A stretch of DNA of 64,000 nt from the NCBI GenBank assembly GCA_000002445.1, contig AL929603.2, positions 32,001 to 96,000 on the forward strand, read 5' to 3'. The DNA comes from Trypanosoma brucei. Its lineage: Eukaryota. The notes under the pieces were generated by a model, which was not told where the DNA came from, made no database searches, and worked only from the letters and a program-made list of their open reading frames with translations. Below, in pieces: positions 1 to 60,797 of this stretch. The position numbers were made by a program, and so were the translations under genes. Numbering within the stretch: position 1 is the stretch's first letter; the number at the start of each line of letters is the position of its first letter.

Positions 1-3000
1 ACGCAGTATACTGCTACTTGTGTGAGAATACTTTTAGTACAAGCGAGTACACGCAGTATAGTGCCACTTGTGTGAGAATACTTTTAGTACAAGCGAGTAC
101 ACGCAGTATACTGCCACTTGTGTGAGAATACTTTTAGTACAAGCGAGTACACGCAGTATACTGCTACTTGTGTGAGAATACTTTTAGTACAAGCGAGTAC
201 ACGCAGTATACTGCCACGTGTGTGAGAATACTTTTAGTACAAGCGAGTACACGCAGTATAGTGCCACTTGTGTGAGAATACTTTTAGTACAAGCGAGTAC
301 ACGCTCTATACTGCCACTTGTGTGAGAATACTTTTAGTACAAGCGAGTACACGCAGTATACTGCTACTTGTGTGAGAATACTTTTAGTACAAGCGAGTAC
401 ACGCAGTATACTGCTACTTGTGTGAGAATACTTTTAGTACAAGCGAGTACACGCAGTATAGTGCCACTTGTGTGAGAATACTTTTAGTACAAGCGAGTAC
501 ACGCAGTATACTGCCACTTGTGTGAGAATACTTTTAGTACAAGCGAGTACACGCTCTATACTGCCACTTGTGTGAGAATACTTTTAGTACAAGCGAGTAC
601 ACGCAGTATACTGCTACTTGTGTGAGAATACTTTTAGTACAAGCGAGTACACGCAGTATACTGCTACTTGTGTGAGAATACTTTTAGTACAAGCGAGTAC
701 ACGCAGTATACTGCTACTTGTGTGAGAATACTTTTAGTACAAGCGAGTACACGCAGTATACTGCTACTTGTGTGAGAATACTTTTAGTACAAGCGAGTAC
801 ACGCAGTATAGTGCCACTTGTGTGAGAATACTTTTAGTACAAGCGAGTACACGCAGTATACTGCCACTTGTGTGAGAATACTTTTAGTACAAGCGAGTAC
901 ACGCAGTATACTGCTACTTGTGTGAGAATACTTTTAGTACAAGCGAGTACACGCAGTATACTGCCACGTGTGTGAGAATACTTTTAGTACAAGCGAGTAC
1001 ACGCAGTATAGTGCCACTTGTGTGAGAATACTTTTAGTACAAGCGAGTACACGCTCTATACTGCCACTTGTGTGAGAATACTTTTAGTACAAGCGAGTAC
1101 ACGCAGTATACTGCTACTTGTGTGAGAATACATTTAGTACAAGCGAGTACACGCAGTATACTGCTACTTGTGTGAGAATACTTTTAGTACAAGCGAGTAC
1201 ACGCAGTATACTGCCACTTGTGTGAGAATACTTTTAGTACAAGCGAGTACACGCAGTATAGTGCCACTTGTGTGAGAATACTTTTAGTACAAGCGAGTAC
1301 ACGCTCTATACTGCCACTTGTGTGAGAATACTTTTAGTACAAGCGAGTACACGCAGTATACTGCTACTTGTGTGAGAATACTTTTAGTACAAGCGAGTAC
1401 ACGCAGTATACTGCTACTTGTGTGAGAATACTTTTAGTACAAGCGAGTACACGCAGTATACTGCTACTTGTGTGAGAATACTTTTAGTACAAGCGAGTAC
1501 ACACAGTATACTGCCACTTGTGTGAGAATACTTTTAGTACAGGCGAGTACACGCAGTATAGTGCCACTTGTGTGAGAATACTTTTAGTACAAGCGAGTAC
1601 ACGCAGTATACTGCCACTTGTGTGAGAATACTTTTAGTACAAGCGAGTACACGCAGTATACTGCTACTTGTGTGAGAATACTTTTAGTACAAGCGAGTAC
1701 ACACAGTATACTGCCACTACTGTGAGAATACTTTTAGTACAGGCGAGTACACACAGTATACTGCCACTACTGTGAGAATACTTATAGTACAAGCGAGTAC
1801 ACGCAGTATAGTGCCACTTGTGTGAGAATACTTTTAGTACAAGCGAGTACACGCAGTATACTGCCACTTGTGTGAGAATACTTTTAGTACAAGCGAGTAC
1901 ACGCAGTATACTGCCACTTGTGTGAGAATACTTTTAGTACAGGCGAGTACACGCAGTATACTGCCACTTGTGTGAGAATACTTTTAGTACAAGCGAGTAC
2001 ACGCAGTATAGTGCCACTTGTGTGAGAATACTTTTAGTACAAGCGAGTACACGCTCTATACTGCCACTTGTGTGAGAATACTTTTAGTACAAGCGAGTAC
2101 ACGCAGTATACTGCTACTTGTGTGAGAATACTTTTAGTACAAGCGAGTACACGCAGTATACTGCCACTTGTGTGAGAATACTTTTAGTACAAGCGAGTAC
2201 ACGCAGTATACTGCTACTTGTGTGAGAATACTTTTAGTACAAGCGAGTACACGCAGTATAGTGCCACTTGTGTGAGAATACTTTTAGTACAAGCGAGTAC
2301 ACGCAGTATACTGCCACTTGTGTGAGAATACTTTTAGTACAAGCGAGTACACGCAGTATACTGCTACTTGTGTGAGAATACTTTTAGTACAAGCGAGTAC
2401 ACGCAGTATACTGCCACGTGTGTGAGAATACTTTTAGTACAAGCGAGTACACGCAGTATAGTGCCACTTGTGTGAGAATACTTTTAGTACAAGCGAGTAC
2501 ACGCAGTATACTGCCACTTGTGTGAGAATACTTTTAGTACAAGCGAGTACACGCAGTATACTGCCACTTGTGTGAGAATACTTTTAGTACAAGCGAGTAC
2601 ACGCAGTATACTGCCACTTGTGTGAGAATACTTTTAGTACAAGCGAGTACACGCAGTATACTGCCACTTGTGTGAGAATACTTTTAGTACAAGCGAGTAC
2701 ACGCAGTATACTGCCACTTGTGTGAGAATACTTTTAGTACAAGCGAGTACACGCAGTATACTGCCACTTGTGTGAGAATACTTTTAGTACAAGCGAGTAC
2801 ACGCAGTATACTGCTACTTGTGTGAGAATACTTTTAGTACAGGCGAGTACACGCAGTATACTGCCACCCCTGTAAGAATACTTTTAGTACAGGTTAGTAC
2901 ACACAGTATACTGCCACCCCTGTAAGAATACTTTTAGTACAGGCGAGTACACACAGTATACTGCCACCCCTGTAAGAATACTTTTAGTACAGGCGAGTAC

Positions 3001-6000
3001 ACACAGTATACTGCCACCCCTGTAAGAATACTTTTAGTACAGGCGAGTACACGCTGTATACTGCCACCCCTGTAAGAATACTTTTAGTACAGGCGAGTAC
3101 ACACAGTATACTGCCACCTCTGTAAGAATACTTTTAGTACAGGCGAGTACACACAGTATACTGCCACCCCTGTAAGAATACTTTTAGTACAGGCGAGTAC
3201 ACACAGTATACTGCCACCCCTGTAAGAATACTTTTAGTACAGGCGAGTACACACAGTATACTGCCACCCCTGTAAGAATACTTTTAGTACAAGCGAGTAC
3301 ACGCAGTATACTGCTACCCCTGTAAGAATACTTTTAGTACAGGCGAGTACACACAATATACTGCTACCCCTGTAAGAATACTTTTAGTACAGGCGAGTAC
3401 ACGCTCTATACTGCTACTCCTGTAAGAATACTTTTAGTACAGGCGAGTACACACAATATACTGCTACCCCTGTAAGAATACTTTTAGTACAAGCGAGTAC
3501 ACACAGTATACTGCCACCCCTGTAAGAATACTTTTAGTACAGGCGAGTACACACAGTATACTGCCACCCCTGTAAGAATACTTTTAGTACAGGCGAGTAC
3601 ACGCAGTATAGTGCCACTTGTGTGAGAATACTTTTAGTACAAGCGAGTACACGCAGTATACTGCCACCCCTGTAAGAATACTTTTAGTACAGGCGAGTAC
3701 ACACAGTATACTGCCACCCATGTACGAATACTTTTAGTACAGGCGAGTACACACAGTATACTGCCACCCCTGTGAGAATACTTTTCGTACAGGCGAGTAC
3801 ACACAGTATACTGCCACCCCTGTAAGAATACTTTTAGTATAAGCGAGTACACGCAGTATACTGCCACCCCTGTAAGAATACTTTTAGTATAAGCGAGTAC
3901 ACGCAGTATACTGCCACCCCTGTGAGAATACTTTTAGTACAGGCGAGTACACGCAGTATACTGCCACCCCTGTAAGAATACTTTTAGTACAGGCGAGTAC
4001 ACGCAGTATACTGCCACCCCTGTAAGAATACTTTTAGTACAGGCGAGTACACGCAGTATACTGCCACCTCTGTGAGAATACTTTTAGTACAGGCGAGTAC
4101 ACGCAGTATACTGCCACCCCTGTAAGAATACTTTTAGTACAGGCGAGTACACGCAGTATACTGCCACCCCTGTAAGAATACTTTTAGTACAAGCGAGTAC
4201 ACGCAGTATACTGCCACCCCTGTAAGAATACTTTTAGTACAGGCGAGTACACGCAGTATACTGCCACCCCTGTAAGAATACTTTTAGTACAGGCGAGTAC
4301 ACGCAGTATACTGCCCCCCCTGTGAGAATACTTTTAGTATAAGCGAGTACACGCAGTATACTGCTACCCCTGTGAGAATACGTTTAGTACAGGCGAGTAC
4401 ACGCAGTATACTGCTACCCCTGTGAGAATACTTTTAGTACAAGCGAGTACACGCAGTATACTGCTACCCCTGTGAGAATACTTTTAGTACAAGCGAGTAC
4501 ACGCAGTATACTGCCACCCCTGTAAGAATACTTTTAGTACAAGCGAGTACACACAGTATACTGCCACCCCTGTGAGAATACTTTTAGTACAAGCGAGTAC
4601 ACACAGTATACTGCTACTTGTGTGAGAATACTTTTAGTACAAGCGAGTACACACAGTATACTGCCACCCCTGTGAGAATACTTTTAGTACAGGCGAGTAC
4701 ACACAGTATACTGCCACCCCTGTGAGAATACTTTTAGTACAGGCGAGTACACGCAGTATACTGCCACCCCTGTAAGAATACTTTTAGTACAAGCGAGTAC
4801 ACGCAGTATACTGCCACTTGTGTGAGAATACTTTTAGTACAGGGGAGTACACGCTCTATACTGCCACCCCTGTGAGAATACTTTTAGTACAGGCTAGTAC
4901 ACACAGTATACTGCCACCCCTGTGAGAATACTTTTAGTACAGGGGAGTACACACAGTATACTGCCACCCCTGTGAGAATACTTTTAGCACAGGGGAGTAC
5001 ACACAGTATACTGCCACCCCTGTAAGAATACTTTTAGTACAGGCGAGTACACACAGTATACTGCCACCCCTGTGAGAATACTTTTAGTACAGGCGAGTAC
5101 ACGCTCTATACTACCACCCCTGTAAGAATACTTTTAGTACAGGCGTGTACACACAGTATACTGCCACCCCTGTAAGAATACTTTTAGTACAGGCGAGTAC
5201 ACACAGTATACTGCTACTTGTGTGAGAATACTTTTAGTACAAGCGAGTACACGCAGTATACTGCTACTTGTGTGAGAATACTTTTAGTACAAGCGAGTAC
5301 ACGCAGTATACTGCTACTTGTGTGAGAATACTTTTAGTACAAGCGAGTACACGCAGTATAGTGCCACTTGTGTGAGAATACTTTTAGTACAAGCGAGTAC
5401 ACGCAGTATACTACCACCCCTGTGAGAATACTTTTCGTACAGGCGAGTACACGCAGTATACTACCACCCCTGTAAGAATACTTTTAGTATAGGCGAGTAC
5501 ACGCAGTATACTACCACCCCTGTAAGAATACTTTTAGTATAGGCGAGTACACGCAGTATACTACCACCCCTATGCAATTACTTTTCGTACAGGCGAGTAC
5601 ACGCAGTATACTGCCACCCCTATGCAATTACTTTTCGTACAGGCGAGTACACGCAGTATACTGCCACCCCTGTAAGAATACGTTTCGTACAGGCGAGTAC
5701 ACACAGTATACTGCCACCCCTGTAAGAATACGTTTCGTACAGGCGAGTGCACACAGTATACTGCCACCCCTATGCAATTAGTTTTCGTACAGGCGAGTAC
5801 ACGCAGTATACTGCCACCCCTGTAAGAATACGTTTCGTACAGGCGAGTACACACAGTATACTGCCACCCCTATGCAATTAGTTTTCGTACAGGCGAGTAC
5901 ACGCAGTATACTGCCACCCCTGTAAGAATACTTTTAGTACAGGCGAGTACACGCAGTATACTGCCACCCCTGTGAGAATACTTTTAGTACAGGCGAGTAC

Positions 6001-8150
6001 ACACAGTATACTGCCACCCCTGTAAGAATACTTTTAGTACAGGGGAGTACACACAGTATACTGCCACCCCTGTAAGAATACTTTTAGTACAGGGGAGTAC
6101 ACGCAGTATACTGCCACCCCTGTGAGAATACTTTTAGTACAGGGGAGTACACACAGTATACTGCCACCCCTGTAAGAATACTTTTAGTACAGGGGAGTAC
6201 ACACAGTATACTGCCACCCCTGTAAGAATACTTTTAGTACAGGGGAGTACACACAGTATACTGCCACCCCTGTGAGAATACTTTTAGTACAGGCTAGTAC
6301 ACGCTCTATACTGCCACCCCTGTAAGAATACTTTTAGTACAGGGGAGTACACACAGTATACTGCCACCCCTGTGAGAATACTTTTAGTACAGGCGTGTAC
6401 ACACAGTATACTGCCACCCCTGTGAGAATACTTTTAGTACAGGCGTGTACACACAGTATACTGCCACCCCTGTAAGAATACTTTTAGTACAGGCGTGTAC
6501 ACACAGTATACTGCCACCCCTGTGAGAATACTTTTAGTACAGGCGTGTACACACAGTATACTGCCACCCCTGTAAGAATACTTTTAGTACAGGCGAGTAC
6601 ACACAGTATACTGCCACCCCTGTAAGAATACTTTTAGTACAGGCGAGTACACACAGTATACTGCCACCCCTGTGAGAATACTTTTAGTACAGGCGAGTAC
6701 ACACAGTATACTGCCACCCCTGTAAGAATACTTTTAGTACAGGCGAGTACACACAGTATACTGCCACCCCTGTAAGAATACTTTTAGTACAAGCGAGTAC
6801 ACACAGTATACTGCCACCCCTGTGAGAATACTTTTAGTACAAGCGAGTACACACAGTATACTGCCACCCCTGTGAGAATACTTTTAGTACAAGCGAGTAC
6901 ACACAGTATACTGCCACCCCTGTAAGAATACTTTTAGTACAGGCGAGTACACACAGTATACTGCCACCCCTGTGAGAATACTTTTAGTACAGGCGAGTAC
7001 ACACAGTATACTGTCACCCCTGTAAGAATACTTTTAGTACAGGCGAGTACACGCTCTAGACTGCTACCCCTGTAAGAATACTTTTAGTACAAGCGAGTAC
7101 ACACAATATACTGCCACCCCTGTGAGAATACTTTTAGTACAGGCGAGTACACACAATATACTGCTACCCCTGTAAGAATACTTTTAGTACAGGCGAGTAC
7201 ACACAATATACTGCTACCCCTGTAAGAATACTTTTAGTACAGGCGAGTACACACAATATACTGCCACCCCTGTAAGAATACTTTTAGTACAGGCGAGTAC
7301 ACACAGTATACTGCCACCCCTGTGAGAACACGTTTAGTACAGGCGAGTACACACAGTATACTGCCACCCCTGTAAGAATACTTTTAGTACAGGCGAGTAC
7401 ACACAGTATACTGCCACCCCTGTGAGAATACTTTTAGTACAGGCGAGTACACACAATATACTGCTACCCCTGTAAGAATACTTTTAGTACAGGCGAGTAC
7501 ACACAGTATACTGCCACCCCTGTGAGAATACTTTTAGTACAGGCTAGTACACACAGTATACTGCCACCCCTGTAAGAATACTTTTAGTACAGGCGAGTAC
7601 ACACAATATACTGCCACCCCTGTAAGAATACTTTTAGTACAGGCGAGTACACACAATATACTGCCACCCCTGTAAGAATACTTTTAGTACAAGCGAGTAC
7701 ACGCAGTATACTGTCCCCCCTGTGAGAATACTTTTAGTACAGGCGAGTACACACAGTATACTGCCACCCCAGTAAGAACACGTTTAGTACAAGCGAGTAC
7801 ACACAGTATACTGCCACCCCTGTAAGAATACTTTTAGTACAGGCGAGTACACACAGTATACTGCCACCCCTGTAAGAATACTTTTAGTACAGGCGAGTAC
7901 ACACAATATACTGCTACCCCTGTAAGAATACTTTTAGTACAGGCGAGTACACACAGTATACTGCCACCCCTGTAAGAATACGTTTCGTACAGGCGAGTGC
8001 ACGCAGTATACTACCACCCCTATGCAATTACTTTTTGTACAGGCGAGTGCACGCAGTATACTACCACCCCTATGCAATTACTTTTAGTACAGGCGAGTAC
8101 ACGCAGTATACTACCACCCCTATGCAATTACGTTTCGTACAGGCGAGTAC
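1..8150. repeat. Tandem array of an exact 50-bp unit, about 163 copies. It matches the '50-bp repeat' arrays known upstream of T. brucei VSG expression sites. Three sequence variants occur in blocks.
   Basis: Period is exactly 50 bp (acgcagtatactgctacttgtgtgagaatacttttagtacaagcgagtac), read from position 1 to 8150. The array ends abruptly at acggggggaacc (8151). Variant A (ctgctacttgtgtgagaata) dominates 1-2830. Variant B (ctgccacccctgtaagaata) dominates 2831-7980. Variant C (ctaccacccctatgcaatta, followed by tttcgtac) occurs at 5400-5900 and at 7980-8150 next to unique DNA. There are no unique spacers. Confidence 0.9.
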
Positions 8151-8794
8151 ACGGGGGGAACCAAGCGAAATTATTTGTTAAGGTGATGTCAGCGGTGGGG
8201 TAGTGAGTGAAATGTTGTGGAGGAATGTGGAGTTATGGTATGGGAGTTTATGATGGTATTTGCTTAAATTAGAAGTAGTGTCAAGGAATTAAAAGATGAC
8301 AAATAAAATGTGAAACCGGTATACGTGAGTGGGTGATTAATATATTTTATAATTTGTTCTTTTCTTAAGAATGAAATGGGTATATAAAAAAACCAAATAA
8401 CGTATGTTTAGGAGCCTTTATATGGATTTATTTCACAACGTCTTTCTAACTTATTCTTGCTGAACTTATGAGTATATTGGCCCTGTTCCACCTATAAAGC
8501 CGTTGATTTATAAATGGGGTGGATTTAACTTCTTCACATTAGCCACTGTTTCCACAAAACAATACGATGAGCCATTGTTATAAATTTTAAGACGTTGTCA
8601 CACATGCTTAAAGTGTTTGACATTAGAAAAGAATGTAGTTCCCTGCGCATTATGCTGCCACAGTGCAACATTTCCTACAGTCCTATGTTGGTAAATCAGC
8701 AACCTACTGAAAGGCGTAACGGAAAGCACCGTTTCTTTTTTAAAAGTTTATCTTCATTCGGTTTTTTTTTTGTCAAGCGATATGAATGAGCTTC

Positions 8795-8836
8795 TGTGTG
8801 TGTATCTGTGTATGTCTGTGTTTGTTTGTGTGTACC
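8795..8836. repeat. Imperfect GT/TG-rich microsatellite
   Basis: tgtgtgtgtatctgtgtatgtctgtgtttgtttgtgtgt, read directly from the sequence. Confidence 0.8.
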
Positions 8837-10039
8837 AACACATATTTGGCATCAACTTCCATGGTTGCTACAATACTGTCTGCTGGAAGTACTTTTAGAA
8901 ACGCGGTGGAAACAGGGACCTCCACATCGCTTTTATTTTTAGACGCGTCTGGTGGACATAACTGATGTCGCTTCTGCCAACGTGACCATGAGGAAGAGAG
9001 ATATAATAATAATAATAACTTTTATTTATAAAAAATGTTTAGAAACAGATGGTGATGAACAATCCTTCTGACAGGACTGCAGTGGTGGGATGAGCACCTC
9101 AACATCAGCACCATTATGGGTGGCGTCCACCGTCCAAACAGTTGTGTACGGGACAGCGGTCACAAGGCGATTTTGTGTTATTTCAGCGAGAGGAGTAAAG
9201 AAATCCACACGGCACTGGTCGTCTTGATCTGCATTTTTTTCCAAAGATGACAGCAACACCACAAGCAGAGCTAAAGCATGCATAGGCGGAACAGCACCCT
9301 CGTCGATATGGAACAACACAGCAACTGTCACGCTCTCATTTCCTTTAGCGCGTGCATCAACTACTCATGTTACATACACTACCTGTAGAGCCACCTTCAG
9401 ACACATTAATATATCAATGTATTTAAAATAAAGTAAAAAAAAAAAGAAAATAGAAAAGAAAAGAAGTGAAGAGGACTTCACTGCATTTTCACGGCATACA
9501 ACGGCGAAATCGTTATTTTCGTTGTTGTTTTCTCTCCCTCCATCTCTTTTGTTATCGCCAAATAACAAAAGGAACCATGAATATTATCACAATTACTGCG
9601 CGTTACAGTTTGGTGTCACATTTTATTTTTAAATCCCCATGTGAGGATGCGCAATTTAGTGTACAGATAAATTTCACCCGATTCATCATTCTTCATGCAG
9701 GAAAGATGTATCAAAAAAAAAGTAAAAAATAAAAAAAAGAGAAATCACACTTTATACTATTTCTATCATTGGAATCCCATGAAATCAAGCGAAAGACACG
9801 TACTTATTCCCATTCCTTGAAGTTCTTGAAGTAAAATCTTGAACACATTGGGGGAATCCACATGTGAGACGGGTATTTTTGGCATTACATTATGAACAAT
9901 ACATGTCCTCTTCTCACCATTTATAACCCACACGAGCAGCATCAAATATAAATTGTGAAGAGGTATGAGATCACAAGGAGCTCGCTCTCATTGAGAAGGT
10001 TGGATGCGTCATATATATATATAATCATGTAATCCCTTT

Positions 10040-11830
10040 TCATTTCAACAATACGCAAACCTCCACTGCGGAATCGACTTTGAATGAGTTGACCTCGTCA
10101 GCACGAAACGGGGCCCGCCCAGTGGCATGAACATTAATCTTATCAGTAAACATGTGTTTGAGGTGTTGGTAATAAATGGGGTCAAAGAAAACATAAGTGC
10201 GTATCATCTTCCCCGTTATGCCCGAGTGGAAAATATACATCATCTCCGTGAAGATAATTGTATCCATGTTGTATCAATTCCTCATCCAGCTCTTCATCCT
10301 TATCGGTACCCAAAGATAGTGCCATCGCCTAACTTTTCCGTGAATGCACTCACACCTTTGAGCTAACAAGTTCCAGCAACTTTCCAACTGTCATACGGCT
10401 CGGGAATCCATGAGAATTTATGATCATATCTGTGCAAATGCCTTTACTCATTGAAGGGCATGTTAATACACCATCAGTCATGAGATCCACTACTCCCTCC
10501 AGCCCGTGCCGTGAGGAAAACTTATTTCAGACCTCGGGACCGCGAACTTCTCTCGTAGCAACTTTAACTTTATTGTTCTACATCCATTGATATATCCGAG
10601 TCACTGGAAGGTGAGAGATGACCACATTTGGTTCACAACAGCAGGCTGAGGGTATTTATTATATTCAAGAAAATTAGGTCTTGTTTTCATGGAAGGCACG
10701 GGAGGGTATTTGTTTACTAAAATATCAAACTGACAAACAGCCGCACCTTTACTACTGGCAATACCATCAATATTAAAGGCATTGTGTCTCGCAACATTCC
10801 AATCTGTTGGAAGAATTATATCATACATACTCACCGTTGGGAAGTCTTTCCAGTTCCATCTCATGCTTGCAGAAAACAACATAGCACCCATAGCCACAAT
10901 TGAGCGAACTGCGGTTGTGTACACCTTTGCGTCTTCAATATCGTAACCTCTATAGCTCATAATGCATACCATTGTATTAATTCCCGCATCTAATATTTTG
11001 TAGTTGCTTAGGTTCATAGCCTTCGTCCAGCAAAGGGATCGTTGAGAGTAAGCACTCAACATAAGTACTGTGTCCATTTATAATGTACTGAATATACGCA
11101 ATGGTTCCAACAGCTTGCTTGCCAATGGCTGACTGTAATGTGTTTCGTGCAAATTGATTGTGATGTGGAAAGGAAAATAATGCTAGCGACAACTCCAAGT
11201 GAGTCTCGTGTACTGCTCAATGTCTTTGTGGTGAACTGCTATAAGACAGACATTCGCTTCGTCATATAAGTCAATGAATTCCACAACAAACCTTCAGCTA
11301 AAATATCGTTAATCGATCACTTACTTGAACTCAAGTTATCCAGGTGTTAAGAAATTACAGCGTGTTTACCGTCGCTAACGAAAACATACAACCTCACGAT
11401 CCTTCTGCCAACACAAACAATTTGAACACTCTTCTGACGGTCATTTATCGCAATTGAAACGTGTGGATGCAAGCGGCCTGTGTTCCTCAGGGTTCGTAAT
11501 ACATCCCGACACAAACGGCTCATGTATCGATAAACGCACATCAGCACTTCATTGAGGAAAACTGTGTAGTATTTAAGAAATTCGTTAAGGCTGATATAAT
11601 CTATTTCCTCCACTCCAATATTGTACGCATCCGCATGTAAACAAACAAATTATCCATGTTGAGTGTTACCTGACTAAGAATAGCAAAATTATTAACCAAA
11701 CAGCAACAACTTTCACCCTCTGGGGTATTGCAAGGAGGGATATACACCATTCCCCATTGACTTGAATAGAGAAATAATGATCCGCACATGTGGGTCAATA
11801 CACGAAGTCATGGTCACTCCACTGCTGCCG
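10040..11830 (-). pseudogene. Unidentified degenerate, fragmented ORF cluster (pseudogene X, copy 1) in the 3' flank of RHS-a
   Basis: Minus-strand ORF fragments of 65, 88, 73, 158 and 75 aa lie collinearly in shifting frames. The same string recurs at 25401-27200 with extra frameshifts. No motif I can assign. Tested mentally against P-loop, RT and VSG-like composition; none fit. Confidence 0.35.
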
Positions 11831-12936: not shown

Positions 12937-14994
12937 TCACCTTCGCTTTGCTTTCATCGCTCGCCTTCCCTGTGCCTTTTTTGCTTCCTGAAGATCTACC
13001 ATCAGATGAGCATTCATTTCGTCCCCAAACGTTACCTGGAATTGTTCAATCGTTTCCCAAAATGTTTGAAGTTGTTTCGCCTTCCTGGCAGGGATAACTT
13101 TGTCGACGTTAGCCTCACATTTTTGCCAATTGGTAATCACACCGCCATTAACTCCATTCATGTATATCATCTCCCAAGCCATGTTACCCGAAAACGTGTT
13201 CCAGTCCGAAAAATATCCTTTAATTCTCTCCGTGAACGCATTCAACTTTGTCGCAGTGGTGGAGTGACAGCCCGACTTGGTCACGTGTAAAAGGACAAGT
13301 GTCTTTGGTTTTGGCGCTTTTTTCGCTTGCCTTCCAGGCGACATCGTGAAGCGCCCCTCAACGAAAAAAAAGCCATCCACCAAGGGTTCATAGGCTGTGG
13401 CGGGAGTGTAGAGCACCATGTATTCGCAGCGTTCAATTGGGTTCTGCCTGGCTGCTGGTAAGACTTCCCATCCAGTGAGGCACAACTGCTGAGGAGTCAT
13501 GCTACTCAGTATACTTTGTTTTCCCCTCAGCTTCTCAGGCGGATGGAGGTGTCTCAAGTTCTTTGCCATCATCTCGAGAACTCGAGGATTGAGCACCGCA
13601 AACAACGCATGGCTTTCAAATGAAATGAAAGCGGCACTTCTGTTTCTCATCATGAGCTGGGACTCTGCTACTTTTCGCGCAGTAATGCCAAGCACCGCCC
13701 AAAGTAGCAAGGTCCTTATGTGCCCGGAAAGCTCTTTGCTGCGATATGAATCTCCGGAAACTCCATTTCCACGCGAACGGACTATCTGTACCATCTGGTA
13801 CGACACCTCTTCAGTTTGCCAGTTCATTGATGACCTAAAAAGATCCTCGCAGCCATTTTTATCATTAGCATCGAGGCCTCTTATTTTTTTTGCCACCGCC
13901 TCCATTCGCCCGCCGTGCCCCACAGCGTCGTAAACGGCACGAGGCACCGGGCCTGCCACGGCAATACGCTGCTTTACAGTTTCCCATTCGTCCTTTAGTC
14001 CTCCTCTTAACTCTTGTTTCGCCGTGTTGGATACCTTTTTATCTAATGCTACTGATAAATTCTTCCATGCCACAAACGCCTTTATGTCACGCACATCATC
14101 GCAGTTTATAATAATATGGCGGCTTCCCATGTCCTTTTCCCACTCCTCGTAATGTACCGTATCGGGGGAAGTGAGGACAGTTACACCCCAACCCAAATGG
14201 CACAGCTCATCAGGCGGTATAAGTAAGCTCTTACCGATGTCGACAATGATGTGACCTCTTTTTTTTCTTATTGTTTTTATGAAGGTAACGGCGGAATCGG
14301 TGCTTCTGTCTTCCTCAACCCTCCCCTCTTCTCCGGGTTTCTTGTTATATATTAGGTAAGCGATTTTACCCACGAAATATGCAACAACATCAAGCATTCC
14401 TTCATGGAAGTGAAGCAGTGAATGAAGCAAAAATGATCCAAGGCCACATGATTTACCAATACCAGGTGTACCAATAACAATATGTATCGGTGAATCCTCA
14501 GCTTTTTCTACCCAACATGCTCTCAGCCCTTTTTCGACTTTATACCACACGCGCATAATTTCACGACGGATGTATACATGTTTAAATTTTTCGTTGCACC
14601 TCTCAGTGTGGCCCAATGCAAACCTGTTGTATGGCCAACCCTTCTCCGAAGTGAGAACGAAAATCTCCAAACCATCGGGTCTCTCCTCAATCTCTGCATC
14701 AACATTCGCAGGGTCAGGAGTTATATCAACCTCCGCTTCGGTCCATATGCGCTGTGGTTTTCCATCGAACACTTTCATTCCAAGTGGATCTTCATCATAA
14801 CCCGACATCACATAACTCCATTTCGCATTATAAATGGAATCGTATAATTTCTCTTCGAGAGATTTGCCCTCTCCGGTTTCTGATGGGTTCTCGTTTTTTC
14901 GGCCGGCTTGTCTCTTCATCGGGCGGTACGCACCATTCAACCATCCATTTAAAATATTCCGAGTATCTCCCACACAACCACCATTCTGATTCAT
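12937..14994 (-). CDS. Retrotransposon hot spot (RHS) protein, a/c subtype. Short N-terminal variant (685 aa) with an intact ORF.
   Basis: Real ATG (ttcat on plus strand at 14992-14994). Carries the P-loop IVIGTPGIGKSCGLGSFLL and the conserved core YDSIYNAKWSYVMSGY ... IINCDDVRD ... DGFFFVEG. Its 5' flank (14995-15440) is near-identical to that of RHS-c (30837-31285). It lacks about 170 N-terminal residues that RHS-c has. Confidence 0.85.
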   Translation of the reverse strand: MNQNGGCVGDTRNILNGWLNGAYRPMKRQAGRKNENPSETGEGKSLEEKLYDSIYNAKWSYVMSGYDEDPLGMKVFDGKPQRIWTEAEVDITPDPANVDAEIEERPDGLEIFVLTSEKGWPYNRFALGHTERCNEKFKHVYIRREIMRVWYKVEKGLRACWVEKAEDSPIHIVIGTPGIGKSCGLGSFLLHSLLHFHEGMLDVVAYFVGKIAYLIYNKKPGEEGRVEEDRSTDSAVTFIKTIRKKRGHIIVDIGKSLLIPPDELCHLGWGVTVLTSPDTVHYEEWEKDMGSRHIIINCDDVRDIKAFVAWKNLSVALDKKVSNTAKQELRGGLKDEWETVKQRIAVAGPVPRAVYDAVGHGGRMEAVAKKIRGLDANDKNGCEDLFRSSMNWQTEEVSYQMVQIVRSRGNGVSGDSYRSKELSGHIRTLLLWAVLGITARKVAESQLMMRNRSAAFISFESHALFAVLNPRVLEMMAKNLRHLHPPEKLRGKQSILSSMTPQQLCLTGWEVLPAARQNPIERCEYMVLYTPATAYEPLVDGFFFVEGRFTMSPGRQAKKAPKPKTLVLLHVTKSGCHSTTATKLNAFTERIKGYFSDWNTFSGNMAWEMIYMNGVNGGVITNWQKCEANVDKVIPARKAKQLQTFWETIEQFQVTFGDEMNAHLMVDLQEAKKAQGRRAMKAKRR

Positions 14995-37903: not shown

Positions 37904-40405
37904 CTATGCATTGTTACCACCTCTATTGTTAACTCCGTTGTTATTTTCACCTCTTGTTTTCAATTCAACGTATAGTGCAATAATGTGTTTATAAAGTGAG
38001 ACCGCGAACTGACGCACTTCCCTTTTCCAAAATCTTTCCTCAACCTCATTATTTTGCCCTTCATCTCTGTCAGTCCTTTCACAGCACTGCGGCTTCGTAA
38101 TTTTTTCGCTGTCAACCCTTTGGACATAAATTATTTCCCATACCATATCATTGGAAAAATTGTCCCAACCTTGGAAGTAACTTCGCAAATACCTCTTCAT
38201 CTTAAATAACCCACCGGTGCTGCAGGGATGTCTACCGGAAACTGTGTACTGCAGTCCCACAAAAGTCTTCGGGCTCTCAACGAAAAAGAACGCATCAACA
38301 ACTGGGAAACTCCTTGATTGCGGCTTGTACAATTTCATATATTGAATTTCAGCTCCAGCTACAATTGGAACATCCTCAGGAACCACAATCGAAGGACCAA
38401 TGAGTCTTGGTTCTTGCAGCACCTGCAGCACACTTTGTGGAATTTGATTCCTAGCAAATGAAAGGCCCTGTAACTCCCTTGCCAACTCAGTTAGTGTATT
38501 CTCATGCGACAATGCTTCAATGCCACTCTTCTCAAACATGTAGGCGGCGATAGCGCGGTTAGACAGCAGAGCAGACATTGCAGCATATTTATCCGTTAGC
38601 CAAGGTATCAGAAAGTCTAAAATAGCTTGTCCCGTGTAAGATGAAAGCGGTCTGCAGCGATACATTTCACACAGGAGCTTCTCCTCCTTCACTCGAACAA
38701 CCCCTACTAACTTGTGTGATACTTCATCTGTTTGCCACATAGCTGCGTTTTGGAAATATTTAGCGTAATCATTCATATCATCATCTTTCATTTTGCCAAT
38801 GGCTTCCTGAACCTTTCCCTCCTGCCTGTTATACGAACTAAGACGACCAATATGACGAAGCAGTGGACCAACGATACGAATGCGACCTTGAATTTCTTGC
38901 CATTCACTTTCAATTTTCTCCTTTGCAACTGGAGGACTCCACTTGTAAGCAGGAGCAATTTTCCCCCATCTCGATATGTGTATGGCTTCCAAATCCTTCA
39001 ATGTATCACAGTTCATGTAAATATCTGAGGCGGTGTTTTGCTTGGACCATTCATGGAATTGCTTGACGTTTGGAGAGCTCAAAGCAATACCGGCACAACC
39101 AGCAGGTGGTTTCGTCGGAGCAGGATGGTCCTTGTCCACATCGAATATAACGTATCCCTTGATATCCTCACCGCTACGTGATCCTCCGATTATTTGCTCA
39201 ACAACTGTAAATGCATTCCCATAATCATTGTAAAACGTAACATATCCTGCTCGACCACCTATGGGTTTGTGAAACACATACGCCTTACCCCTCACAACGT
39301 ATATGATAATCTGAAGCTGACTCGCTTCATAATGCAGTAGTTTGTATAACAGTAGGGATCCCACGGAAAACGATTTACCAATACCAGGTGTACCAATAAG
39401 AACATTAGACGCATCGTCAACAATCACTTCATCCATAAGCCACCGGTTAAGCACATTCTCCACCTTGTACCACACCCTCAGTGCTTCCCTGCGGATATAA
39501 ACATCACTTTTAAAAACATACTCCACTCCCTTCTCATGATTAATATCATAATCATTTGGGTTCTTTTCGAAAGACGTGTATGGCCAACCCATTTGAGATG
39601 TAAGCACAGCAATCTCCAAGTTACCGTGACGGGGAAGTGGTTCGTTCATAGTTTCCGGAGTGTGACTGACATCAACCTCCTCCTTCGTCCACATGTGTGG
39701 CGGTCTTCCATTGAACACTTTCATGCCAAGTGGCTCTTCATCATAACCCGACTCCACATAACCCCACGTCGCATTGTATATAGAATCATATACTCCTTTA
39801 AGTTCGCTACCATCAGCTGTTTGGGCAGCTCGCTTTTCCGCTCTCTTGGCGGCCGTCACCGCTCCATCCAACCTTCCCCTCGCCACGGGACCAACAAATT
39901 CTCTTATTTCCACTGTCCCCTTCTCCTCCCACTGACTGAGGTAGTAAATTTCTTTTTCGTCAAGGTAGTCTACCTTCTCAGACAGATCAATAGCTGTCTT
40001 CACTGTTTTAAACTCATTAGTGCCTTGTATATCCTCAAGAATCTCAGCATCAACAATATATTTTCTGGGATTCTTAACAAAAATGGGCATCCTAACATTT
40101 TCTGCCTCAGCCACCGCAAAAGTCCCGCCAACGAACTTCTGAATAAAGTCGTTCACTGTCATATCCCTCAAACCCGCATAATCATCCAGCAGCACATCCC
40201 TCACCTTACTATCCATTGTCCAGTTGGGCCCCCCTTCAGTTCTCTGCCGTATTTGTGGAGGCTGAGCAGCAGCAGCAGCAGCAGGAGGAGGAGGCGGCGG
40301 TACATTTTCATCCCGTGGCCTCCTCATGGGCCCTTCAAAATTATCTGCCACTTGTTGATTTTCATTATTTCCTTGTGGAGCTGCGGGACTATTTGCTCTT
40401 GACAT
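37904..40405 (-). CDS. Retrotransposon hot spot (RHS) protein, d/f subtype (833 aa), intact
   Basis: Real ATG (gacat on plus strand at 40401-40405 gives MSR). N-terminus MSRANSPAAPQGNNENQQ with PPPPPPAAAAAAQPPQ encoded by a (gca/gga/ggc) triplet run. P-loop VLIGTPGIGKSFSVGSLLLYKLLHY. The 2502-nt ORF has no interruption. Confidence 0.88.
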   Translation of the reverse strand: MSRANSPAAPQGNNENQQVADNFEGPMRRPRDENVPPPPPPAAAAAAQPPQIRQRTEGGPNWTMDSKVRDVLLDDYAGLRDMTVNDFIQKFVGGTFAVAEAENVRMPIFVKNPRKYIVDAEILEDIQGTNEFKTVKTAIDLSEKVDYLDEKEIYYLSQWEEKGTVEIREFVGPVARGRLDGAVTAAKRAEKRAAQTADGSELKGVYDSIYNATWGYVESGYDEEPLGMKVFNGRPPHMWTKEEVDVSHTPETMNEPLPRHGNLEIAVLTSQMGWPYTSFEKNPNDYDINHEKGVEYVFKSDVYIRREALRVWYKVENVLNRWLMDEVIVDDASNVLIGTPGIGKSFSVGSLLLYKLLHYEASQLQIIIYVVRGKAYVFHKPIGGRAGYVTFYNDYGNAFTVVEQIIGGSRSGEDIKGYVIFDVDKDHPAPTKPPAGCAGIALSSPNVKQFHEWSKQNTASDIYMNCDTLKDLEAIHISRWGKIAPAYKWSPPVAKEKIESEWQEIQGRIRIVGPLLRHIGRLSSYNRQEGKVQEAIGKMKDDDMNDYAKYFQNAAMWQTDEVSHKLVGVVRVKEEKLLCEMYRCRPLSSYTGQAILDFLIPWLTDKYAAMSALLSNRAIAAYMFEKSGIEALSHENTLTELARELQGLSFARNQIPQSVLQVLQEPRLIGPSIVVPEDVPIVAGAEIQYMKLYKPQSRSFPVVDAFFFVESPKTFVGLQYTVSGRHPCSTGGLFKMKRYLRSYFQGWDNFSNDMVWEIIYVQRVDSEKITKPQCCERTDRDEGQNNEVEERFWKREVRQFAVSLYKHIIALYVELKTRGENNNGVNNRGGNNA

Positions 40406-53853: not shown

Positions 53854-56355
53854 CTATGCATTGTTACCACCTCTATTGTTAACTCCGTTGTTATTTTCAC
53901 CTCTTGTTTTCAATTCAACGTATAGTGCAATAATGTGTTTATAAAGTGAGACCGCGAACTGACGCACTTCCCTTTTCCAAAATCTTTCCTCAACCTCATT
54001 ATTTTGCCCTTCATCTCTGTCAGTCCTTTCACAGCACTGCGGCTTCGTAATTTTTTCGCTGTCAACCCTTTGGACATAAATTATTTCCCATACCATATCA
54101 TTGGAAAAATTGTCCCAACCTTGGAAGTAACTTCGCAAATACCTCTTCATCTTAAATAACCCACCGGTGCTGCAGGGATGTCTACCGGAAACTGTGTACT
54201 GCAGTCCCACAAAAGTCTTCGGGCTCTCAACGAAAAAGAACGCATCAACAACTGGGAAACTCCTTGATTGCGGCTTGTACAATTTCATATATTGAATTTC
54301 AGCTCCAGCTACAATTGGAACATCCTCGGGAACCACAATCGAAGGACCAATGAGTCTTGGTTCTTGCAGCACCTGCAGCACACTTTGTGGAATTTGATTC
54401 CTAGCAAATGAAAGGCCCTGTAACTCCCTTGCCAACTCAGTTAGTGTATTCTCATGCGACAATGCTTCAATGCCACTCTTCTCAAACATGTAGGCGGCGA
54501 TAGCGCGGTTAGACAGCAGAGCAGACATTGCAGCATATTTATCCGTTAGCCAAGGTATCAGAAAGTCTAAAATAGCTTGTCCCGTGTAAGATGAAAGCGG
54601 TCTGCAGCGATACATTTCACACAGGAGCTTCTCCTCCTTCACTCGAACAACCCCTACTAACTTGTGTGATACTTCATCTGTTTGCCACATAGCTGCGTTT
54701 TGGAAATATTTAGCGTAATCATTCATATCATCATCTTTCATTTTGCCAATGGCTTCCTGAACCTTTCCCTCCTGCCTATTATACGAACTAAGACGACCAA
54801 TATGACGAAGCAGTGGACCAACGATACGAATGCGAGCTTGAATTTCTTGCCATTCACTTTCAATTTTCTCCTTTGCAACTGGAGGACTCCACTTGTAAGC
54901 AGGAGCAATTTTCCCCCATCTCGATATGTGTATGGCTTCCAAATCCTTCAATGTATCACAGTTCATGTAAATATCTGAGGCGGTGTTTTGCTTGGACCAT
55001 TCATGGAATTGCTTGACGTTTGGAGAGCTCAAAGCAATACCGGCACAACCAGCAGGTGGTTTCGTCGGAGCAGGATGGTCCTTGTCCACATCGAATATAA
55101 CGTATCCCTTGATATCCTCACCGCTACGTGATCCTCCGATTATTTGCTCAACAACTGTAAATGCATTCCCATAATCATTGTAAAACGTAACATATCCTGC
55201 TCGACCACCTATGGGTTTGTGAAACACATACGCCTTACCCCTCACAACGTATATGATAATCTGAAGCTGACTCGCTTCATAATGCAGTAGTTTGTATAAC
55301 AGTAGGGATCCCACGGAAAACGATTTACCAATACCAGGTGTACCAATAAGAACATTAGACGCATCGTCAACAATCACTTCATCCATAAGCCACCGGTTAA
55401 GCACATTCTCCACCTTGTACCACACCCTCAGTGCTTCCCTGCGGATATAAACATCACTTTTAAAAACATACTCCACTCCCTTCTCATGATTAATATCATA
55501 ATCATTTGGGTTCTTTTCGAAAGACGTGTATGGCCAACCCATTTGAGATGTAAGCACAGCAATCTCCAAGTTACCGTGACGGGGAAGTGGTTCGTTCATA
55601 GTTTCCGGAGTGTGACTGACATCAACCTCCTCCTTCGTCCACATGTGTGGCGGTCTTCCATTGAACACTTTCATGCCAAGTGGCTCTTCATCATAACCCG
55701 ACTCCACATAACCCCACGTCGCATTGTATATAGAATCATATACTCCTTTAAGTTCGCTACCATCAGCTGTTTGGTGAGCTCGCTTTTCCGCTCTCTTGGC
55801 GGCCGTCACCGCTCCATCCAACCTTCCCCTCGCCACGGGACCAACAAATTCTCTTATTTCCACTGTCCCCTTCTCCTCCCACTGACTGAGGTAGTAAATT
55901 TCTTTTTCGTCAAGGTAGTCTACCTTCTCAGACAGATCAATAGCTGTCTTCACTGTTTTAAACTCATTAGTGCCTTGTATATCCTCAAGAATCTCAGCAT
56001 CAACAATATATTTTCTGGGATTCTTAACAAAAATGGGCATCCTAACATTTTCTGCCTCAGCCACCGCAAAAGTCCCGCCAACGAACTTCTGAATAAAGTC
56101 GTTCACTGTCATATCCCTCAAACCCGCATAATCATCCAGCAGCACATCCCTCACCTTACTATCCATTGTCCAGTTGGGCCCCCCTTCAGTTCTCTGCCGT
56201 ATTTGTGGAGGCTGAGCAGCAGCAGCAGCAGCAGGAGGAGGAGGCGGCGGTACATTTTCATCCCGTGGCCTCCTCATGGGCCCTTCAAAATTATCTGCCA
56301 CTTGTTGATTTTCATTATTTCCTTGTGGAGCTGCGGGACTATTTGCTCTTGACAT
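53854..56355 (-). CDS. Retrotransposon hot spot (RHS) protein, d/f subtype (833 aa), intact. Near-identical paralogue of 37904-40405.
   Basis: Differs from RHS-d at 2 residues (AAQTADG vs AHQTADG; QGRIRIV vs QARIRIV). Flanks are also duplicated. Confidence 0.88.
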   Translation of the reverse strand: MSRANSPAAPQGNNENQQVADNFEGPMRRPRDENVPPPPPPAAAAAAQPPQIRQRTEGGPNWTMDSKVRDVLLDDYAGLRDMTVNDFIQKFVGGTFAVAEAENVRMPIFVKNPRKYIVDAEILEDIQGTNEFKTVKTAIDLSEKVDYLDEKEIYYLSQWEEKGTVEIREFVGPVARGRLDGAVTAAKRAEKRAHQTADGSELKGVYDSIYNATWGYVESGYDEEPLGMKVFNGRPPHMWTKEEVDVSHTPETMNEPLPRHGNLEIAVLTSQMGWPYTSFEKNPNDYDINHEKGVEYVFKSDVYIRREALRVWYKVENVLNRWLMDEVIVDDASNVLIGTPGIGKSFSVGSLLLYKLLHYEASQLQIIIYVVRGKAYVFHKPIGGRAGYVTFYNDYGNAFTVVEQIIGGSRSGEDIKGYVIFDVDKDHPAPTKPPAGCAGIALSSPNVKQFHEWSKQNTASDIYMNCDTLKDLEAIHISRWGKIAPAYKWSPPVAKEKIESEWQEIQARIRIVGPLLRHIGRLSSYNRQEGKVQEAIGKMKDDDMNDYAKYFQNAAMWQTDEVSHKLVGVVRVKEEKLLCEMYRCRPLSSYTGQAILDFLIPWLTDKYAAMSALLSNRAIAAYMFEKSGIEALSHENTLTELARELQGLSFARNQIPQSVLQVLQEPRLIGPSIVVPEDVPIVAGAEIQYMKLYKPQSRSFPVVDAFFFVESPKTFVGLQYTVSGRHPCSTGGLFKMKRYLRSYFQGWDNFSNDMVWEIIYVQRVDSEKITKPQCCERTDRDEGQNNEVEERFWKREVRQFAVSLYKHIIALYVELKTRGENNNGVNNRGGNNA

Positions 56356-59364: not shown

Positions 59365-60797
59365 TCAGGCAGCGGGGCCACCAGCAATAGCGTTTGGTTC
59401 ATCCTGGGTGATCTCCTTAACAATATTCCCTTCCATCTTCACTTGAAACTGGTTGATTCTATTCCACAACTCTGTAGTATAATCGCCTCTGCCCCCAACT
59501 GGTTCGCACTTCTGCCTCTCCTCGATTGGCTTGCTGTCACTGTACTGTATGTAAATCAGCTCCCATTTCAAGTTTCTTGCGAGCTTATCCCATTCACCAA
59601 ACAATTGTTTCATTGCCTTGATAAACTTATCTACCTTCTCTCGTGTCGTGTGATGCGTTGGTGCCACTGTCGCCTGGAGCAGAACAATTGTTGTTGTAAT
59701 GATCGCTCTTCCTTCTCTATCAACAGCTGGCTCAGTTACAAAGAAAAAGGCGTCCACAACGGGGAAATTTCCCTGTACAGGTCGGTAAAGGCACCCAACC
59801 TTGATGTCTTGGCCTGTCGTTTCGGGGTAAATATGACGAAGTGAAGTTGGAACACGTCCCACGGCATTACCACTTGCCAGAGCGGATACATTTGAATCCA
59901 TTTCTTCTCCAACGCGAGGGAGATACCGCAGGTGCGTCACAATCGTCTGCACAACATTTCTCATCGTGAAGGCAAATATGCCCACATTTTCAAATTCATC
60001 AGCGGCCCGCTCTTCTTTCCCACGAAAAACCTTTCGAAGGTAATTGTCTCGCATACATGCTGTGTTCGCCCACACTCTCAATTTCTGCTCAATATCAATG
60101 GAAACAGCTCTGTTTCTGCATTCTTCTCCATTCTCAGTTACAACCCGGACCAACTTAGCTAACATGTAAGTAGTCCCGTCCTGGCGCCATTGAACTCGAC
60201 TATTCAGCACCTTCATGTAGTGACTATCATCGCCTCTACTGATTTCTGCCAGTGCCTCATTTATTTCTCTAACGCGGCCCTTGTAGCGTTTTTCACCTTC
60301 CAGTACTTGGCGGGCCAGTGGGCCCACCTTCTTAATCCATCCTTCTATTTTCTGCCATTCATTCTCAAGGTTTATGATGTGAGCTTCGGTGATTTTACTT
60401 TCGTCCAACTTCGACAGCCGCCTCCACGCAACCGCAGCCTTCAGTTCCACCTCTTCATAGCAATTGATGCAAAAGCGCTCGCAAGCCCGTGGCCGCTTCC
60501 AGCGTCTGTAGTTATTTGGATCTGGAGATGTCAACACAATTACGGGCCACGTTTCCGGCAATTTTGTCGGTATGGGTTCATCTCTCTCTTTCGCAAAGTC
60601 GTATATAATGTAACCAAGACCTTCTTCATCAGCCAAGTCATTGACAGCATCCACTCCATCTTTTTCTTCTTCATAAAATACAACCTTTCTCGGATGAACA
60701 TTTGTCGCCCTGAAGAAAATATATGCCCTACCCTTCACAAAATAAGCGATAATCCGCAACAGCTCCGAATCGTAATGCAGCAACCTTTGGAGCAGAA
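59365..60797 (-). pseudogene. RHS, e/g subtype. 3' portion only; the gene is split by an ingi insertion at 60797|60798.
   Basis: Collinear with RHS-e from LLQRLLHYDSELL to the C-terminus AIAGGPAA. The in-frame 492-aa ORF runs into ingi sequence. The 5' part (including the P-loop) must lie beyond the ingi, outside the window. Confidence 0.85.

Follow-up and report, generated by a model that had tools for sequence, protein, structure and literature searches.

The 50-bp repeats of Trypanosoma brucei raise a question that can be put to any tandem array whose units are not all alike: is the order of the unit variants arbitrary, or does it keep a trace of how the array was rebuilt? To our knowledge, every known VSG expression site is flanked by 50-bp repeats. 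The array considered here opens a 64-kb window (the whole stretch of DNA that was analysed), and the sample consists of one array from one Sanger-era assembly (TREU927 chromosome 1), with one array edge visible in the window.

The array, its locus and its flank

The first 8153 bp of the window form one tandem array, for which Tandem Repeats Finder gives a period of 50 and 163.1 copies, with 95% matches and 0% indels. Cut at 50-bp intervals, it falls into 163 in-phase units, which have 64 different sequences and vary at 30 columns. The 50-bp phase is unbroken across all domain and island boundaries, and the sequence contains neither Ns nor phase slips. The array and its surroundings comprise the following features (unstranded here and below, unless a strand is given).

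1-8153: 50-bp tandem repeat array, 163 in-phase units, no indels; the window begins inside the array
8154-9765: non-repetitive flank, no degenerate 50-bp units
9766-11798, minus strand: degenerate RNA polymerase second-largest subunit (Rpb2-type) pseudogene, with Pfam Rpb2 domains 3, 4, 6 and 7
12937-14994, minus strand: RHS4 gene, first of a minus-strand RHS cluster, with Pfam RHS_N and RHSP

The right edge of the array is sharp. Decayed repeat units were sought past 8153 and none was found: the flank 8154-9765 shows in-frame identities to the consensus of 8-16 out of 50 bases, its best local alignment is at shuffle level, and the terminal units are intact. In the pseudogene, the four Rpb2 domains are ordered and spread over several frames. 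Further on, seven RHS ORFs and one RT/RNase H ORF lie between 12.9 and 64 kb, and every large ORF right of the array is an RHS or retroelement gene encoded on the minus strand. The flank and the identity of the locus are read directly: because the RHS4 product is 100% identical to CAD53013.1 / XP_846380.1, a chromosome-1 protein of T. b. brucei TREU927, the locus is T. brucei TREU927 chromosome 1.

Since the Rpb2-like pseudogene and the RHS genes lie at the right edge, this edge is the chromosome-internal side and not the promoter side. No ESAG, VSG gene or expression-site promoter was found in the 64-kb window, and any BES would lie to the left of position 1. What the original prediction called the array edge is to be qualified as an RHS-side, chromosome-internal one, with no expression site in the window. 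By its period, organism and RHS flank, the array probably belongs to the BES-flanking 50-bp repeats of T. brucei, an element that is already known; it is a kilobase-scale array of units of about 50 bp, in a T. brucei genome, with an RHS/ingi-rich internal side.

A scan of the window against Rfam gave no match, the exact two-unit pattern had 0 matches in metagenome and prokaryote genome collections, as expected, and no trypanosome paper was matched by 12-16-mers of the unit sought in literature text. The T. equiperdum RHS locus examined as a comparison contained no 50-bp units, and a paper on TALE proteins does not have the 50-bp repeats among its targets. An ESAG7 query (compared with PDB 6SOY_B) had as its sole contig-linked match a chromosome-internal TREU927 ESAG-like gene.

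A homogeneous domain containing a 15-unit module

The left part of the array, domain A, is also its most homogeneous one (1.64 differences per unit pair).

1-2850: domain A, units 0-56; G3, TTG at columns 18-20, G24 and A42 are diagnostic
1-750: 15-unit module, copy 1; 3 mismatches to 751-1500
751-1500: 15-unit module, copy 2; near-perfect tandem duplication with copy 1
2201-2850: third, partial module copy, units 44-56; 98.6-98.8% identity to copies 1 and 2

A higher-order pattern of about 750 bp (15 units), which had been predicted from a resemblance of 151-350 to 901-1100, is real. These two segments lie within a longer identity, as units 0-6 (1-350) are the same as units 15-21 (751-1100), and the partial recurrence extends over 2201-2850, where units 44-49 (2201-2500) copy the first six units. 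When the A-domain units are shuffled, 0.7% of the shuffled orders contain an identical run of at least seven units. At the base level, 1-381 equals 751-1131 exactly, and these 381 bp are the longest exact internal repeat. Over their whole length, 1-750 and 751-1500 are separated by 3 mismatches in 750 bases (99.6% identity), whereas the remaining offsets, up to 29 units (1450 bp), give 96.0-97.2%; offsets of 35-40 units, where the overlap is far shorter, recover to 97.1-97.6%. An independent repeat search found 1-300 and 751-1050 identical at 100%, with other registers at 96-98%, and a collinear unit alignment of the two module copies reaches a score of 30.4, where the null gives 14.2 +/- 2.3.

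The unit distance has a minimum at lag 15 (z=-4.0, family-wise P=0.004). When copy 1 is removed, lag 15 vanishes (z=-0.4) and lag 29 stays (z=-3.5, family-wise P=0.023); the lag-15 signal is therefore mainly that of one near-perfect tandem duplication. Copy 2 and the following 750 bp share 97.2% identity, near background, and the tail of the third copy is replaced by six identical units in a row (2501-2800).

Within the module, a sub-period of about 5 units is nested. Units carrying G11 are 4-7 units apart (P about 1e-4), and TC units follow each other only at distances divisible by 5 (P=5.5e-4). Of the three mismatches between copies 1 and 2, two move the G11 marker by one unit (unit types '3 2' against '2 3'). 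The periodic markers sit inside a 10-bp palindrome, CAGTATACTG. Compensatory variants in this palindrome were considered and rejected, since pairing is broken by the TC variant as well as by the G11 variant.

A junction inside one unit, a mosaic domain and A-type islands

To the right of domain A, the array changes type within a single unit, and units of A type reappear as islands further on.

2825-2842: A-to-B junction, in unit 56, with A-type columns 15-24 and a B-type column 42
2851-7950: domain B, CCC at columns 18-20; columns 3, 24 and 42 freely assorted
3601-3650: A island, unit 72, with the sequence of A-domain unit type 3
4601-4650: A-like mosaic island, unit 92, A3 with T15, TTG and A42
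4801-4850: A-like mosaic island, unit 96, TTG with G42 and G44
5201-5400: four-unit A island, units 104-107, of types 16, 0, 0 and 3; abuts the C island

Unit 56 (2801-2850) is a mosaic that combines the A-type TTG and G24 with the B-type G42, which confines the switch to an 18-bp interval; the position proposed for it, 2830, falls inside. The four islands coincide exactly with the predicted segments, and units 104-107 match the A-domain motif '0 0 0 3'. The description of what follows the junction as a single 'variant B' did not hold, as domain B is a mosaic in which, on the CCC background, columns 3, 24 and 42 appear in all eight combinations. A whole-unit higher-order repeat was sought in domain B and none was detected; only neighbouring units resemble each other, at lags 1-6.

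A divergent subfamily inside the array and at its end

The most divergent units form two separate patches.

5401-5900: C island, units 108-117; C core in 4 of 10 units
7951-8153: terminal C block, unit 159 and units 160-162 (C core with A13); ends after 'ACG' at 8153

The C core consists of four linked substitutions (A22, C25, A26 and T28, at columns 22, 25, 26 and 28), packed in 7 bp with almost no intermediates. It is present in units 111, 112, 115 and 117 (5551-5650, 5751-5800 and 5851-5900) and in units 160-162 (8001-8150), a clustering along the array that has P about 2e-4. A concentration of this variant at the edge and in one internal island was thus located correctly, although the core does not extend throughout 5401-5900: the island units devoid of it carry A13, G32, C36, T40 or G49. 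Likewise, the motif 'tttcgtac' comes after the core in the island and in unit 162, whereas units 160 and 161 lack it at this place. Both patches belong to one subfamily, with A13, C36 and the four linked substitutions in common; units 114 and 159 have the same sequence, and a single base separates unit 111 from unit 162. Units 160-162 show 7-9 differences from the B consensus, against 0-3 for a typical unit. A donor of the C core was sought elsewhere in the window and was not found. A long segmental duplication joining the C island to the C edge was also considered, and was rejected as unit-level Smith-Waterman alignments with block-shuffle nulls were not significant.

Globally, diversity climbs toward the edge: above the level of domain A, domain B has 2.7-3.3 differences per unit pair, and the C island and edge reach 5.4-5.7. 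Spatial clustering holds for most variants (P from 2e-4 down to below 1e-4), and the common sites are almost unlinked (r2 <= 0.08 at 9-40 bp). Variant positions are non-random and include a recurring multi-unit pattern, as anticipated (clustering P <= 2e-4 for most variants, with the family-wise P=0.004 of lag 15).

Origin of the pattern

The pattern and its statistics are direct observations, from which we infer recombination mechanisms and their order. The reading that we favour, with a probability of about 0.7, is that this array is the chromosome-internal 8.15 kb of the 50-bp satellite that, in T. brucei, sits between a telomeric VSG expression site and the RHS-rich subtelomere, and that its variants are the passive footprint of in-register homologous recombination and were not designed. 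That all 163 units are 50 bp long and in phase is expected only if every rearrangement was homology-guided. The earlier view, in which the array records unequal crossing-over and conversion, agrees with this phase and also with the 99.6% duplicate, the identical runs, the clustering, the A-type islands and the mosaic units. In the literature, recombination within the 50-bp array has been put forward as a route to duplication of a whole BES (PMC2567434).

Three processes would account for the structure. Unequal exchange or replication slippage in a multi-unit register would duplicate blocks, whose products would be the 750-bp module (2.9 copies), the stretch 2501-2800 with its six identical units, and local runs of G44 units and of T46 units. 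Short-patch gene conversion, moving single units or sub-unit tracts, would have generated the A islands in domain B as well as the mosaic units, and would have let columns 3, 24 and 42 assort freely; recurrent mutation at hot positions could be an alternative source of the near-zero linkage among common sites. The A-to-B switch would be the end-point of a single crossover or conversion inside the 18-bp interval. As a third process, weaker homogenisation at the array end would let the C subfamily survive in the last four units, an edge effect that rests on these four units at the single visible edge, and the internal C island would be a second patch of this subfamily, surviving or transferred. 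The data fit exchange within the array and exchange between arrays (ectopic) alike.

A more specific, and unlikely, reading makes the A/B junction (2825-2842) and the A/C patches at 5201-5900 the scars of ectopic inter-chromosomal recombination between 50-bp arrays. For example, break-induced replication starting in the array might lead to duplication or replacement of a whole expression site. The module-bearing domain A would then be incoming, BES-linked and common to other expression sites, and domains B and C would be resident on chromosome 1. If this were true, unit variants would act as 'barcodes' recording which expression sites exchanged, and where.

It is quite improbable that the assembly itself created the 750-bp duplicate, the A/B switch or both, through mis-joined Sanger reads or clones or through a chimera of the chromosome-1 homologues. 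The array is only 8.15 kb long and lies at the window start, and complete arrays of Lister 427 sequenced by nanopore measure about 14-78 kb (PMC11739655), so that the present sequence is truncated or possibly collapsed. Such an error would also fit two module copies that differ at just 3 of 750 bases, but two of these three differences form a coherent one-unit marker shift, unlike random errors. A typical Sanger read is longer than 381 bp. As the longest exact repeat is below this read length, the order of units is in principle resolvable. Furthermore, the A-type islands and mosaic units within domain B indicate that both types truly coexist in one stretch, and the lack of Ns and phase slips also speaks against an artefact.

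The proposal that the internal C island goes back to an ancient edge, which a later fusion brought inside the array, fared poorly and is now very improbable. According to it, the island at 5401-5900 once ended a shorter array and the right-hand 2.2 kb were added later, by unequal exchange of terminal C units with internal B units or by fusion with a second array. The complex subfamily common to island and edge, with its identical or nearly identical units, fits this proposal, and if terminal units crossed over unequally with internal ones, edge-type units would come to lie inside the array with the phase kept. However, neither a phase break nor a remnant of flank is present at 5401 or 5901, and the units before the island (57-103) are not collinear with those before the edge (118-158), their score of 5.2 being close to the 4.9-5.1 of the null (P=0.45-0.82). 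In addition, the C units of island and edge align reversed (42.2) as well as forward (37.9), and the left neighbours of the two C blocks are unlike, of A type at 104-107 and of B type at 155-158.

Finally, selection could have kept A, B and C as functional subfamilies for different factors, such as a C unit specific to the boundary with RHS chromatin, and the multi-unit period would then reflect chromatin phasing; strict unit length (0 indels in 163 units), the tight C core with few intermediates, the periodic markers within the palindrome, the NLP enrichment reported on 50-bp repeats (PMC3064810) and the presence of base J on them even upstream of the active expression site (PMC5814960) would agree with this, but it is the least credible explanation, as the literature examined reports no sequence-specific binder of particular unit variants, variants assort freely in domain B and module copies fall to background identity within one further copy.

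Significance

A boundary role has been proposed for the 50-bp repeats, which display neither origin activity nor R-loops (PMC11739655). The unit-level map suggests in addition that the array is renewed by recombination in register and that each of its two sides has had its own history. The pattern of this single array is what is expected of any tandem repeat under unequal exchange and belongs to known satellite dynamics. Applied to all long-read arrays, the same analysis could reveal variant blocks that mark past expression-site exchanges.

Comparison with known systems

[quoted passage not shown] No expression-site promoter or ESAG lies in the present window, so that the adjacency of this array to a BES is putative. 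Like the 50-bp repeats, the 177-bp and 70-bp repeats are tandem repeats of T. brucei subtelomeres or telomeres, studied alongside them (PMC11739655; PMC3064810), but they have another unit length and sequence. The 177-bp repeats are replication origins and the 50-bp repeats are not, and the latter are the sole examined repeat class without R-loop accumulation (PMC11739655). An internal variant map with a 15-unit module, an A/B junction and a C end-block was not found in the literature, in a search that was thin on subscription papers.

The theory of tandem repeats evolving by unequal exchange is said to go back to Smith (1976) and Stephan (1989), and McAllister and Werren (1999) reportedly dealt with the ends of such arrays. 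As in array-end divergence, the last four units are here the most divergent and diversity grows from the interior to the edge. The terminal units are, however, intact 50-bp members of a discrete subfamily instead of being progressively eroded, with no decayed units past the edge.

Higher-order repeat satellites, such as the primate alpha satellite, provide another class for comparison. As in these satellites, blocks (99.6%) are more alike than neighbouring monomers (about 96.5%), and a homogeneous, block-structured domain lies beside a more heterogeneous one. Unlike them, this array has no centromere context and only about 2.9 module copies, one pair being near-perfect and the rest near background; many block iterations at uniform high identity are lacking and domain B is devoid of whole-unit periodicity. 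The module resembles a recent segmental duplication more than a higher-order repeat established over the whole array.

Extent and setting of the array

The window opens within an array of 50-bp repeats, which Tandem Repeats Finder reports as one array at 1–8153 (period 50, 163.1 copies, 95% matches, 0% indels). Slicing at 50 bp gives 163 units, numbered here 0–162, all of them in phase, with 64 different unit sequences and 30 variable columns (base positions within the unit). A 16-mer derived from the unit is found 160 times inside the array and once outside in the whole window, the latter at chance level with 3 mismatches. Together with the Tandem Repeats Finder result, these counts indicate that the array is real and restricted to the window's left end. 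Its end at 8153 is abrupt: in each of the twelve 50-bp frames that follow, 8–16 positions agree with the consensus, and no repeat likeness was found in the flank, where the best local alignment to the consensus is at shuffle level. As whole 50-bp arrays measure about 14–78 kb in the nanopore assembly of Lister 427 (source data of PMC11739655), the visible 8.15 kb is probably just part of the full array.

To the right of the array, all family-matched ORFs of at least 150 aa are on the minus strand. They and a pseudogene located between the array edge and RHS4 are as follows:

9766–11798, minus strand: degenerate, frame-shifted RNA polymerase second-largest-subunit (Rpb2-type) pseudogene, with Pfam Rpb2 domains 3, 4, 6 and 7 in order
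12937–14994, minus strand: RHS4, the RHS ORF nearest to the array, matching CAD53013.1 / XP_846380.1 along 685 aa at 100% identity
right of the array, minus strand: RHS (retrotransposon-hot-spot) proteins, seven family-matched ORFs, RHS4 included
61070–63964, minus strand: RT/RNase H/zinc-finger retroelement ORF, one such family match

CAD53013.1 / XP_846380.1 is RHS4 of T. brucei brucei TREU927, whose locus we take to be on chromosome 1. In the published layout, RHS genes precede the 50-bp repeats and these precede the expression site (PMC11739655). The 8153 edge, which faces the RHS genes, is therefore the chromosome-internal one, and any expression site would lie left of the window.

Large stretches of the RHS cluster itself are tandemly duplicated: a pair of 833-aa RHS ORFs (37904–40405 and 53854–56355) is spaced by about 15.95 kb, and identical microsatellite pairs are spaced by 15.95 kb (40869/56819) and 9.76 kb (22657/32414). 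Within 59365–63964 (minus strand), a 492-aa RHS ORF that has the RHSP domain only, without the N-terminal domains, lies directly downstream of the RT/RNase H/zinc-finger ORF, an arrangement that would fit the insertion of a retroelement within an RHS gene.

A recent multi-unit duplication in domain A

The 15-unit pattern of the original prediction is present in domain A (units 0–56, 1–2850) and extends beyond the four units first cited. Indeed, copy 1 (1–750) and copy 2 (751–1500) differ by 3 mismatches (99.6% identity), and 751–1131 matches 1–381 exactly. Other offsets up to 29 units give 96.0–97.2%, and identity rises again at 35–40 units (97.1–97.6%) over a much shorter overlap. An independent repeat search found 100% identity between 1–300 and 751–1050 and 96–98% elsewhere. 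In terms of unit types, units 0–6 are repeated as 15–21 and the first six again at 44–49. Mean unit distance is minimal at lag 15 (z=-4.0, family-wise P=0.004 over 35 lags), and the unit-level alignment of units 0–14 to 15–29 scores 30.4 (shuffle null 14.2 +/- 2.3). The module comprises 13–15 units in about 2.9 copies, two of which are a very recent tandem duplicate. Without copy 1, lag 15 is lost (z=-0.4) and lag 29 stays (z=-3.5, family-wise P=0.023) because of a third, partial copy at 2201–2850.

An array-wide higher-order repeat was rejected, since copy 2 is 97.2% identical to the following 750 bp and the lag-15 signal is lost once copy 1 is removed. The module also contains a shorter period, of about 5 units: units with G11 lie 4–7 units apart and never side by side (P about 1e-4), and every gap between units with TC at columns 5–6 is a multiple of five (P=5.5e-4).

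Columns 4–13 of each unit (1–8153) correspond to a perfect 10-bp palindrome, CAGTATACTG. These two quasi-periodic markers lie inside it, as do the variants A6 and A13; none of the four is compensatory. The doublet variant ACGCTCTATA (G3, T5, C6) is carried by ten units of both domains (6, 11, 21, 26, 41, 68, 97, 102, 126 and 141; 301–7100), never next to itself and always with G3, even in A3-dominated stretches. It has the look of a relic marker, left from an older periodic structure that would precede the A/B differences.

Domain junction, islands and domain B

The consensus units of A and B differ at six positions (3, 18–20, 24 and 42). Unit 56 combines TTG and G24 of A-type with G42 of B-type, which locates the expected sharp switch between 2824 and 2842. 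Within 1–9000, GC skew is positive in 1–3000 (+0.04 to +0.09) and negative in 3001–8000 (-0.10 to -0.18), because A and B units differ by TTG-to-CCC and G-to-A. Unit typing recovers all the predicted A islands: units 72 and 105–107 are exact A-domain types, and units 92, 96 and 104 are A/B mosaics. It is rather unlikely that exchange with the array of another expression site left the junction and the A+C patch behind as scars.

The idea of a single variant B does not hold: on the CCC background, columns 3, 24 and 42 occur in all eight combinations and are nearly unlinked (r2 <= 0.08 at 9–40 bp). In domain B (2851–7950), likeness is limited to near neighbours (lags 1–6), and the unit-distance lag analysis found no whole-unit periodicity. 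The A/G state of column 24 in units 57–158 (2851–8000) recurs weakly every 3 units (r=0.26 at lag 3 and r=0.24 at lag 6; P<0.01 before correction, marginal after multiple testing), and a local five-unit pattern, GGGGA, occurs three times in units 86–100 (4301–5050).

Variant C at the edge and in the island

The C core consists of four linked substitutions (columns 22, 25, 26 and 28) in seven units (111, 112, 115, 117 and 160–162), with no intermediates among the 163 units except unit 74 (C25 alone). As predicted, C is confined to the array edge (7951–8153) and one internal island (units 108–117, 5401–5900). Its units are clustered (P about 2e-4), and the last three would all be C by chance with a hypergeometric probability of 7x6x5/(163x162x161), about 5e-5. 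Furthermore, unit 159 is identical to unit 114, including three rare markers, and unit 162 differs from unit 111 by one base; island and edge belong to one subfamily.

This shared subfamily is the one point in favour of the proposal that the island is a former array end, to which the right-hand block was added later. Such a fusion predicts that the phase is broken or that flank sequence is left at the island, but neither is seen. If it occurred by unequal crossover between end and interior, the preceding units should be collinear, but units 57–103 and 118–158 are not (P=0.45–0.82), the C units can be aligned just as well with their order reversed, and the unit types immediately left of the two C blocks differ. 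We therefore consider this origin very unlikely. Mis-assembly is also improbable: the sequence is Sanger-era and starts inside the array, but no exact internal repeat is longer than 381 bp, a length that typical Sanger reads can bridge, and two of the three differences between copies 1 and 2 are a coherent one-unit marker shift rather than scattered errors.

Turnover of the array

Indels and phase slips are absent across the whole array, A/B junction and island borders included, so every rearrangement must have followed in-register homology. From the variant pattern we infer, with a probability of roughly 70%, a combination of multi-unit unequal exchange, short-patch conversion and weaker end homogenisation. 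The predicted history of unequal crossing-over and conversion thus fits the phase, the duplicate and the mosaics, with the exception of its ancient-edge part. Unequal exchange or slippage in a multi-unit register would generate the 99.6% 750-bp duplicate, and unequal exchange or slippage could also give the runs of identical units (six at 2501–2800) and the local runs of rare variants (G44 in five units, T46 in four). Short-patch conversion may account for single-unit islands of A-domain type, mosaic units and the free assortment of common sites. Differences per unit pair increase from A (1.64) to B (2.7–3.3) and to the C island and edge (5.4–5.7), and this rise would fit weakest homogenisation at array ends. 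Homogenisation of tandem arrays is classically expected to be weakest at their ends, an expectation that reportedly goes back to Smith 1976, Stephan 1989 and McAllister & Werren 1999.

Comparison with known repeats

The 50-bp repeats have been termed 'highly conserved', without origin activity or R-loops and with their function left open (PMC11739655). They carry base J (PMC5814960) and are enriched in NLP (PMC3064810), and recombination inside them has been suggested to underlie whole-expression-site duplication (PMC2567434). Their internal variant structure is not described in the searched literature, which takes in few subscription journals; the variant map presented here covers one array in one assembly. 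In T. brucei, the repeats have long been known as a landmark of expression sites, and duplicates of several units, variant domains and diverged ends are the standard behaviour of satellite DNA. Both the element and the kind of dynamics were already known.
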